Shown piece by piece: positions 199 to 921 of a stretch of 12,867 nucleotides of DNA. The stretch comes from a virus. Both the position numbers and the translations under genes were made by a program. Every line of letters begins with the position of its first letter. Within the stretch, counting starts at the first letter, position 1. Below the pieces are notes generated by a model that did no database searches, was not told the origin of the DNA, and saw nothing but the letters and a program-made list of their open reading frames with translations. The DNA lies in UHGV virus genome UHGV-1686525; one strand, 5' to 3'.

Positions 199-441
199 AT
201 GGCAGAGATTATTCCCATGACTGAAGAACAGAAATTCCAGTTAGAGATTTACAAGCTGGTCATGAACCAGAACGCAGCCGCAGAAGAAGCATTTCAATTC
301 ATTGGCACTGACGAGCTGAAGCTTGAGCTATTCAAAATTCACTTCCAGTCAGGCGGCGCTAATTCAGATATCACGACCCGTACTATCGAAGCGGTGCGTA
401 AATCGAAGGAAGCGTTAGACCTGTTCACTACCGGAGTGTAA
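199..441 (+). CDS. Hypothetical small protein (80 aa), unknown function; first ORF of a three-ORF cassette upstream of the terminase genes
   Basis: ATG at 199 preceded by GGAG (188-191) at 7 nt spacing; uninterrupted 80-codon ORF; same strand and tight packing with downstream genes; predicted helical, acidic protein. No recognisable motif. Confidence 0.55.
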
Positions 442-444
442 GAG

Positions 445-732
445 ATGACTGAACAAGAAATGCCGAGATACCAGTGCCACAAAAAAGTTCGCGCCCTGAA
501 GATTGGCTCTATAGAACATAAGCCAAACCCAGATCAGTCTGGTAAGACTGGCTCTTCTAGTTATGGGGCAATTATTCATCCGGATGATAAGAAATACGCA
601 GCATTTGATGTTAGCGCGGAATATATCTGTAAGCACCGACCAATGTCTGGAGGCTATTACGTTGTCTATGAGGATGGATATGAATCATATTCTCCTGCTG
701 AGGTATTTGAGTCTGGATATTCAAAATTATAG
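445..732 (+). CDS. Hypothetical protein (95 aa), unknown function; contains C-H ... C-x-H residues (QCHKK ... ICKHR) and a Tyr/Gly-rich C-terminus
   Basis: ATG at 445 only 3 nt after the upstream stop, preceded by GGAG (433-436); 95-codon ORF ending TAG 730-732. No family recognised from sequence. Confidence 0.55.
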   Translation: MTEQEMPRYQCHKKVRALKIGSIEHKPNPDQSGKTGSSSYGAIIHPDDKKYAAFDVSAEYICKHRPMSGGYYVVYEDGYESYSPAEVFESGYSKL

Positions 733-741
733 GAATCCTCT

Positions 742-921
742 ATGACAAGCGTCGTTGATCTTGGTAAGGAGAAGAAATTCCCAATTACTCAAGAGCTATA
801 CGAGCGGCTTGAAAGCGTCATCCATGATTACGATGGTGAAATCAGTTTATGCGAGGCGATTGGCACACTCGAATTGCTGAAGCAGTCACTGATTGAAGGC
901 GCGAAAGAGTCCTCAGCCTGA
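742..921 (+). CDS. Hypothetical small protein (59 aa; MTSVVDLGKEKKFPITQELYERLESVIHDYDGEISLCEAIGTLELLKQSLIEGAKESSA), not in the supplied ORF track because it is under 60 aa
   Basis: ATG 742 preceded by AGGA (731-734) at 7 nt spacing; in-frame stop TGA 919-921; fills the otherwise unexplained gap between the 95-aa ORF and the small terminase; same strand. Confidence 0.45.
   Translation: MTSVVDLGKEKKFPITQELYERLESVIHDYDGEISLCEAIGTLELLKQSLIEGAKESSA

Follow-up and report, generated by a model that had tools for sequence, protein, structure and literature searches.

In the UHGV virus genome UHGV-1686525, three small open reading frames (ORFs) are packed directly upstream of the small terminase gene, and the question they raise is whether they form one functional unit and which task, if any, they perform for the phage. 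The DNA analyzed here, called the window, is a stretch of 12,867 nucleotides (nt) from the late region of an HK620/P22-like temperate phage. The three ORFs lie within positions 199-921 and are named ORF80, ORF95, and ORF59 after the numbers of amino acids in their products. A preliminary description regarded them as an uncharacterized cassette with a possible role in host takeover, superinfection, anti-defence, or packaging. As described below, the middle gene, ORF95, is a stand-alone member of a very large family of OB-type domains which in other phages are recurrently fused to immune-signal sponges, and ORF95 itself is tentatively read as a counter-defence module.

A Large Family of OB-Type Domains

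ORF95 has no match in Pfam at E <= 1 and no useful match in NCBIfam or PADLOC (best PADLOC E = 0.013 over 23 residues), and fits phrog_11049, a family of unknown function. With clusters formed at 50% identity, an exhaustive profile search recovered at least 5,125 cluster representatives at E <= 1e-3; at E <= 1e-10 the number is 3,226. Most family members are stand-alone proteins of 90-100 amino acids; they are found in phages and prophages and are abundant in strictly lytic phages. Homologs in unrelated phages are about 50% identical, e.g., 51.6% in Ralstonia phages. In lytic phages the neighbors of the homologs are early, regulatory, or replication genes instead of head genes, and in temperate phages the gene is found in the late operon, far from replication genes. 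The family is unnamed, and in the literature searched it is mentioned merely in passing, as the N-terminal domain of RyR Tad (see below).

The AlphaFold2 model of the ORF95 monomer (predicted local distance difference test score, pLDDT, 80.6) consists of a small beta-barrel and two short helices. The barrel is of the OB type, and its best match in the PDB is the decoration protein Dec of phage L (6E3C). Conservation computed over 196 unique domain instances revealed that P7, Y9, H12, K13, K19, K/R63, and H64 are near-invariant, as is the motif GGYYVVY-DGY-S(Y/F/W)SPA-AFE-GY. The conserved H12, K13, K19, K/R63, and H64 are no more than suggestive of the positively charged pockets that sponges have at their protomer interfaces. 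A different view of these residues had been taken in the preliminary description, where two Cys/His pairs, C11-H12 and C63-x-H65, were proposed as a small metal-binding site. The second pair is actually C62-x-H64, and a zinc site was rejected because position 62 is Cys in only 18 of the 196 instances and position 11 alternates between Cys (152) and Ser (39).

In some members of the family (P0103 and the proteins encoded at L090 4667-5272 and L093 7986-8402), the variable loop separating strands 2 and 3 has a Cys-rich insertion (e.g., CRGCFALNSACRNCERCDWEREHGP), which looks like an inserted zinc-ribbon-type element. In P0194, a protein of 4,188 amino acids, 28 separate matches to profile positions 68-92, the region of the GGYYVVY-DGY motif, were detected; this is probably a Tyr/Gly-rich repeat protein with no relation to the family.

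Fusion and Adjacency to Immune-Signal Sponges

The association that carries the functional reading emerged from a fusion scan of 100 ORF95-family representatives of at least 125 amino acids. At least 16 of them have a sponge-family domain in the same polypeptide: PF21825 in seven cases, PF13876 in four, PF11195 (Tad2-like) in three, and PF24729 (the Acb2/Tad1 hairpin) in two. The remaining partners identified are DUF551, found twice, and further domains in single cases. PF13876 is the Acb4 sponge family, directed against the cyclic oligonucleotide-based anti-phage signaling system, CBASS (PMC11722364), while PF21825 is Sequestin, an anti-Thoeris sponge that was itself found via fusions to Tad2 and Acb4 (Tal et al., bioRxiv 10.1101/2025.07.12.664507). 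The screen leading to Sequestin searched among Pfam families for fusions to Tad2 or Acb4 (Tal et al., bioRxiv 10.1101/2025.07.12.664507), so that the ORF95 domain, having no Pfam entry, was invisible to it. In some proteins of the supplementary homolog table of that study, an ORF95-like domain at the N terminus precedes a C-terminal half resembling Sequestin; the main text of the study makes no mention of an OB-fold or DUF domain.

The same association is found at the level of genomic loci. In seven of 31 non-redundant IMG/VR loci, a sponge-family domain is fused to the ORF95 homolog or encoded within two genes of it. These are an ORF95-Acb4 fusion (L066), an Acb4-ORF95 fusion (L070), two ORF95-Tad2 fusions (L075 and L076, the latter with an additional stand-alone Acb4 gene two genes upstream), an ORF95-Acb2/Tad1-hairpin fusion (L079), a stand-alone Acb2/Tad1-hairpin gene overlapping the stop codon of the homolog (L080), and an Acb4-like upstream neighbor (L082). 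An eighth locus, L069, has an Acb4-like extension, assigned by BLAST clustering only. Furthermore, known sponges are short, often of less than 100 amino acids (Tal et al., bioRxiv 10.1101/2025.07.12.664507), and ORF95, phage-encoded and 95 amino acids long, is of this size. Recurrent fusion or adjacency to other sponge families, by which Sequestin was identified, is likewise a property of the ORF95 domain.

The slot occupied by ORF95 is also informative. Sf6 gene 66 (L016 2599-2979), located in the same slot between the lysis genes and the small terminase gene (terS), belongs to the PF13876/Acb4 family (E = 3.6e-35), and in P22 the slot holds the pid moron (PMC3573128). Together with dec of phage L and ORF95, these genes suggest that P22-like phages have a hot spot for counter-defence genes and morons between their lysis and terminase genes. 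That this is a variable accessory slot had already been stated in the preliminary description, and the comparison bears it out.

On these fusions and adjacencies, ORF95 may be a stand-alone counter-defence module aimed at nucleotide immune signaling. Because the evidence is by association, our confidence in this reading stops just short of an even chance. Of the roles named in the preliminary description, anti-defence is thus the best-supported one for the 95-amino-acid gene. Two observations speak against it. ORF95 is not a member by sequence of PF11195, PF13876, PF21825, or PF24729 (Pfam, E <= 1), and residues 1-86 of gp68, which contain a homologous domain (see the next section), had no apparent activity by themselves in a type I Thoeris assay, Thoeris being the only defence system tested (bioRxiv 10.64898/2026.06.04.730250). 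Three further candidates for the identity of ORF95 were discarded since their published descriptions do not fit: Lockin is an elongated beta-sheet hexamer and absent from INPHARED, Acb5 is an enzyme cleaving cyclic GMP-AMP, and TadIV-1 is a helical dimer.

An OB-type barrel might also belong to a protein binding single-stranded DNA or RNA in phage DNA metabolism or late regulation, the association with sponges then reflecting a shared accessory location. The positions of the lytic-phage homologs among replication genes can be read in this way. It is nevertheless a distinctly improbable explanation. The best structural and sequence match of ORF95 is Dec, not a single-stranded DNA-binding protein (SSB), and the in-polypeptide partners of the domain are signal sponges instead of DNA-metabolism enzymes. 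In N4-like phages, SSB and RecA genes are scattered through the published anti-signaling hot spot itself, which accounts for such neighbors, and in temperate phages the gene is distant from the replication genes.

The N-Terminal Domain of RyR Tad

RyR Tad is gp68 of Pectobacterium phage vB_PatP_CB1, whose C-terminal RyR-like domain sequesters glycocyclic ADP-ribose, and its N-terminal domain has been described as a "fold with unknown function, often a single ORF" (bioRxiv 10.64898/2026.06.04.730250). Alignment of this N-terminal domain with the ORF95 family gave an hhalign probability of 94.8% (E = 5.1e-8) over gp68 residues 2-70, and hmmsearch with the ORF95-family profile found the gp68 N-terminal motif at E = 2.4e-9. 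The N-terminal domain of RyR Tad is therefore placed in the ORF95 family, making RyR Tad the fifth sponge partner of the domain.

This relationship also gives rise to the alternative that ORF95 binds no ligand itself and is an oligomerization or scaffold module, which in the fusions dimerizes the attached sponge by swapping beta-strands. Stand-alone ORF95 may then pair with other proteins containing the same domain, or may have a structural accessory role in an anti-defence context. In the crystal, the gp68 N-terminal domain forms a domain-swapped dimer and contributes to dimerization (bioRxiv 10.64898/2026.06.04.730250), and both the inactivity of this domain alone and the fusion of the ORF95 domain to five different sponge families would be in accordance with a scaffold. 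An added dimerizer is not needed, however, by Acb4, Tad2, Sequestin, and Acb2/Tad1, which self-oligomerize (Tal et al., bioRxiv 10.1101/2025.07.12.664507), and the prevalence of stand-alone members of 90-100 amino acids is hard to reconcile with a module serving attached domains. The near-invariance of H, K, and aromatic residues over thousands of proteins is more like that of a binding site than of a dimer interface, and the inactivity of the gp68 domain was seen with one defence system only. We therefore regard a scaffold function as unlikely and retain the counter-defence reading.

Relationship to the Decoration Protein Dec

ORF95 is homologous to the N-terminal OB-fold domain of Dec. Phage L carries DUF2560 (orf118), orf129, dec, and gene 3 in this order, so that dec sits in the same slot as ORF95, and orf129 and dec are found in place of orf59c, the P22 counterpart of ORF59 (orf129 itself was rejected as the counterpart of ORF95, with an hhalign probability of 0.4%). 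Homology to a head-decoration protein had been named beforehand as a finding that would tell against an undescribed function. Such homology does exist, confined to the OB domain; since the capsid-binding features of Dec are absent, it does not make ORF95 a decoration protein.

It is very improbable that ORF95 is a Dec-like decoration or cement protein binding the mature head via its OB domain. ORF95 ends at the residue aligned to about position 89 of Dec, where the OB domain ends, and has no counterpart of the C-terminal trimer spike (Dec residues 99-134), which is essential in Dec; the truncated Dec1-98 is unable to bind virions (PMC11398494). The residues through which Dec contacts the capsid, K30, Y31, and Y49 at site 1 and Y71 and E73 at site 2, align to E24, H25, D55, D77, and Y79 of ORF95, and the Dec substitutions K30D and Y49E reduce capsid binding (PMC6449081). 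Furthermore, in the IMG/VR prophages L017-L052 and L057, near-identical ORF95 genes (97-100%) precede three head-gene modules: coats are 95-99% identical to that of the window at 14 loci, coats are only 26% and portals 33-34% identical at 20 loci, and a third module with a portal of 56% and a scaffold of 32% identity is found at three loci. The capsid structure of Ralstonia phage GP4 contains gp2 and gp1 only, not the ORF95 homolog gp05, and the homologs of lytic phages are encoded outside head modules.

The Dec relatives recovered are mostly more than 92% identical, and all have long C-terminal tails. More divergent ones are encoded at L171 2501-3007, L174 1138-1659, L176 2486-3007, and L177 2495-3106. 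Their OB domains are 61-70% identical, and their tails are different and longer (168-203 amino acids for the whole proteins) and include the segment WGD(V/I)(T/E)GKPTTF(A/P)PTIGTTATTAMAGN; the tails in L174, L176, and L177 finish with a stretch rich in Ala and Leu that seems to be helical. These divergent tails point to swapping of the spike module on a conserved capsid-binding OB domain. In a different case, Pseudomonas phage Dolphis gp96 (L012 4989-5483) and its phage Jeremy homolog bear the public label "capsid decoration protein", though they are encoded among small early-type genes. This label looks unreliable, and its source may be remote similarity to Dec.

Three Separately Exchangeable Genes

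When aligned with P22, ORF95 proves to be cleanly inserted, as a segment of gene size, between the stop codon of orf80 and the start codon of orf59c. Positions 120-1400 of the window are about 98% identical to HK620 and Kapi1 except for a gap matching ORF95. The three genes are also found in other combinations. For example, phage Bas106 of the BASEL collection has the order rha-ORF95-ORF59 with no ORF80, and relatives of ORF95 at 66-75% identity keep the DUF2560 neighbor and have no ORF59. The co-translated three-gene unit of the preliminary description therefore cannot be upheld; the three ORFs are independently exchangeable accessory genes. The order ORF80-ORF95-ORF59 is fixed in 37 close IMG/VR relatives, in which the ORF80 allele has 78-100% identity and terS is of the Sf6 type in only about half. 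In L017-L052 and L057 the ORF80 allele switches between about 78% and 100% identity, and these switches, together with those of the head modules, imply recombination breakpoints flanking ORF95 on both sides.

ORF80, ORF95, and ORF59 share one reading frame, and five singleton database proteins are in-frame ORF95-ORF59 fusions of 158 amino acids in which GAG, CAG, or TGG stands in place of the ORF95 stop codon TAG; the CAG was confirmed in the genome locus L008. Programmed read-through of the TAG was rejected, as all 37 close loci keep TAG and sense codons occur in singletons only, and the fusions seem to be tolerated mutations rather than a mechanism. Similarly, the C-terminal extensions of distant ORF95 homologs were considered as ORF59 homologs by the Rosetta-stone argument and rejected (BLASTP gave E = 0.019 over 17 amino acids for P0036 and nothing for P0054); these extensions are Acb4-like or unannotated. 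In three enterobacterial relatives with no ORF59, the gene 3' of the ORF95 homolog (L053 8300-8647, L054 8300-8668, and L056 8301-8660) encodes a protein of 116-123 amino acids with a HEACH motif. It looks metallopeptidase-like, and the L053 protein has no Pfam match at E <= 0.01.

The location next to terS invites the explanation that the three genes are translated together and serve as an accessory packaging unit with the small terminase, e.g., in recognizing the pac site or assembling the terminase. They are closely packed directly 5' of terS on the same transcript, and orf59c-type genes abut terS in P22, Sf6, HK620, and the window. Co-variation with the terS type, which the preliminary description had put forward as a check, is not seen: the same cassette precedes Sf6-type as well as P22 gp3-type terS, and ORF95 homologs elsewhere precede Terminase_4 and DUF2280 types or sit away from any terminase. 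In addition, orf59c is replaced in phage L, a P22 mutant designated delta(orf25-orf80) is viable with normal lysogeny (PMC11016777), and the genes occur in different combinations. The chance that the cassette serves packaging is consequently slight.

Equally slight is the chance that the cassette is a moron expressed from the prophage for defence or superinfection exclusion to the benefit of the lysogen. The slot is a known moron site, as exemplified by pid. With 41-47% GC, the cassette is poorer in GC than the neighboring structural genes, and the full cassette is present, as part of a prophage, in 49 of 5,426 complete Escherichia coli genomes, with portions of it in 911. Against this, neither a promoter nor a terminator was predicted on the + strand over positions 1-1400, which fits co-transcription of the cassette genes within the late operon. 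PADLOC returned nothing meaningful, strictly lytic phages have many members of the ORF95 family, and the fusion partners of ORF95 are anti-defence domains, not defence domains.

Flanking Genes

ORF80 and ORF59 are already known hypothetical genes. ORF80 matches Pfam DUF2560 with 147.7 bits (gathering cut-off 25; E = 1.1e-43) over the full model (1-72), and is 97% identical in amino acid sequence to P22 orf80, located at the same position. ORF59 matches phrog_3546 over positions 1-59 of 59 (E = 1e-41), and is 92% identical to P22 orf59c with a ratio of nonsynonymous to synonymous substitution rates (dN/dS) of 0.17. The statement of the preliminary description that none of the products has a recognizable motif thus does not apply to these two. 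Nor would the shortest ORF be missed by standard callers: it is annotated as orf59c in P22, and in RefSeq E. coli genomes each of the three ORFs is called by the Prokaryotic Genome Annotation Pipeline. The two families have a narrow, enterobacterial distribution. For ORF59, 72 database clusters were found, all enterobacterial and all at least 69% identical.

A targeted literature search found no functional study of orf59c or DUF2560. The structure model of ORF80 is a four-helix bundle (pLDDT 78), for which structural matching returned generic helical matches only, and no fusions were seen among the DUF2560 homologs checked; deduction of its function from structure was dropped for these reasons. 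For ORF59, the parallel between the ORF95-Sequestin fusions elsewhere and the succession of ORF95 and ORF59 in the window led to the idea of a divergent Sequestin, which was ruled out by hhalign against ten Sequestin domains (0.2% probability) and by the lack of a PF21825 match at E <= 1.

Layout of the Cassette

The features of the cassette are collected in Table 1. The preliminary description of three small + strand ORFs is accurate in coordinates, Shine-Dalgarno sites, and tight spacing, the intergenic gaps being 3 nt between ORF80 and ORF95 and 9 nt between ORF95 and ORF59. The start of terS is presumably ATG945, in keeping with the 140-amino-acid Sf6 terS, and the in-frame ATG939 is also possible; the spacing from ORF59 is accordingly 23 or 17 nt. 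In comparison with relatives, dN/dS is 0.02-0.31 for ORF80, 0.08-0.09 for ORF95, and 0.17-0.34 for ORF59. All three are real genes evolving under purifying selection. An E. coli genome with an identical cassette shows the wider order on a single strand: antiterminator, holin, lysozyme, Rz, a 50-amino-acid ORF, KilA-N, DUF2560, ORF95, ORF59, terS, terL, and portal.

Table 1. Positions of the cassette genes, their translation signals, and the downstream boundary in the window.
Feature	Positions	Strand	Remarks
Shine-Dalgarno-like GGAG for ORF80	189..192	+	6 nt 5' of ATG199; read from sequence
ORF80, 80 amino acids	199..441	+	Homolog of P22 orf80, HK620 hkbM, and Sf6 gp67; Pfam DUF2560; predicted four-helix bundle
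Shine-Dalgarno-like GGAG for ORF95	433..436	+	Within ORF80 3' end; 8 nt 5' of ATG445; read from sequence
ORF95, 95 amino acids	445..732	+	Free-standing OB-type domain of a large phage family; extra gene as compared with P22
ORF95 stop codon TAG	730..732	+	GAG, CAG, or TGG in rare relatives (variant proteins P0001-P0004 and P0006)
Shine-Dalgarno-like AGGA for ORF59	731..734	+	7 nt 5' of ATG742; read from sequence
ORF59, 59 amino acids	742..921	+	Homolog of P22 orf59c, HK620 hkbN, and Sf6 gp68; small acidic protein
terS, small terminase subunit, Sf6 type	945..1367	+	Downstream boundary of the slot, outside the cassette; Pfam Sf6_terminase E = 7.8e-45

Two further observations concern the DNA itself. 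The leader 5' of ORF80 (window positions 25-125) contains an 8-bp hairpin, CUCUCCUG-AAU-CAGGAGAG, at 37-55, inside a larger predicted fold of -35.5 kcal/mol (z = -2.4); no U tract follows the hairpin, and an Rfam scan gave no match. A 12-nt direct repeat is formed by positions 217-228 (ATGACTGAAGAA, encoding MTEE inside ORF80) and 445-456 (ATGACTGAACAA, encoding MTEQ at the start of ORF95). Probably, the repeat is due to chance, or it could mark a recombination junction.

Proposed Function and Significance

The picture that we favor is of three exchangeable accessory genes in the late operon, lying in the known insertion hot spot between the lysis cassette and terS. ORF80 and ORF59 would be the residents, dispensable-looking small helical or acidic proteins, and ORF95 the later arrival, a stand-alone copy of the widespread phage OB-type domain. 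ORF95 would be translated from the late mRNA, alongside the structural proteins, and act most likely as a small homo-oligomer, on whose conserved basic and aromatic surface (H12, K13, K19, K/R63, H64, and eight aromatic positions) the signal itself or a signaling component may be bound. Possible targets are CBASS, Thoeris, Pycsar, or type III CRISPR-like pathways. Dec of phage L would be a derived relative, in which the OB domain gained the trimerizing spike and the capsid-contact residues. The broader proposal that the whole ORF95 family constitutes a new and very large OB-type class of counter-defence proteins, a further class of signal binders or neutralizers from which Dec evolved, is at present doubtful.

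Phage neutralizers of nucleotide-based immunity are being found quickly, and fusion to a known sponge is a proven route of search. The ORF95 domain, absent from Pfam and present in thousands of cluster representatives, is linked by this route to four sponge families and to RyR Tad. Stand-alone ORF95 is carried by E. coli prophages and by the isolated phage Bas106, and is easy to test for this reason. If ORF95 is active, a new fold would be added to the counter-defence repertoire, and there would be an explanation for the N-terminal domain of RyR Tad as well as for the extensions found at the N terminus of some proteins in the Sequestin homolog table. Whatever the function of ORF95, the homology provides an evolutionary origin for the OB-fold termed novel in the title of the Dec paper (PMC6449081). 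For annotation, the results mark the lysis-to-terminase slot of P22-like phages as a counter-defence/moron hot spot. An OB-type barrel is not reported for any sponge in the literature searched, in which no paper joins the OB-fold with a phage sponge; the link to the OB-fold of Dec and the family-wide association with sponges appear to be new.

Comparison with Known Systems

In P22, HK620, and Sf6 the two flanking genes are adjacent, while in the window ORF95 is located between them. As compared with Dec (6E3C; Newcomer et al. 2019, PMC6449081), ORF95 has no trimer spike, all five contact residues are replaced, and it does not co-vary with the coat type. The conserved C/S-H-K motif is present in ORF95 and absent from Dec, and the ORF95 family is far larger than the group of Dec relatives, spanning phages with unrelated capsids. 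The N-terminal domain of RyR Tad shares with ORF95 the motifs YQ(C/S)HK-VWA and G-Y-x-V-V-Y...SWSP..VF. It is a short form with about 28 central residues fewer than ORF95. A RyR-Repeat12-like sponge domain is attached to it, whereas ORF95 carries no sponge domain. ORF95 is not a member, by sequence or by fold, of Tad1, Tad2, Acb2, Acb4, Sequestin, or Lockin, but like these sponges it is a small phage protein encoded in an accessory region. Its conserved basic residues are such as might be expected for phosphate binding, and its domain, fused or adjacent to four sponge families, has the same guilt-by-fusion signature as Sequestin.

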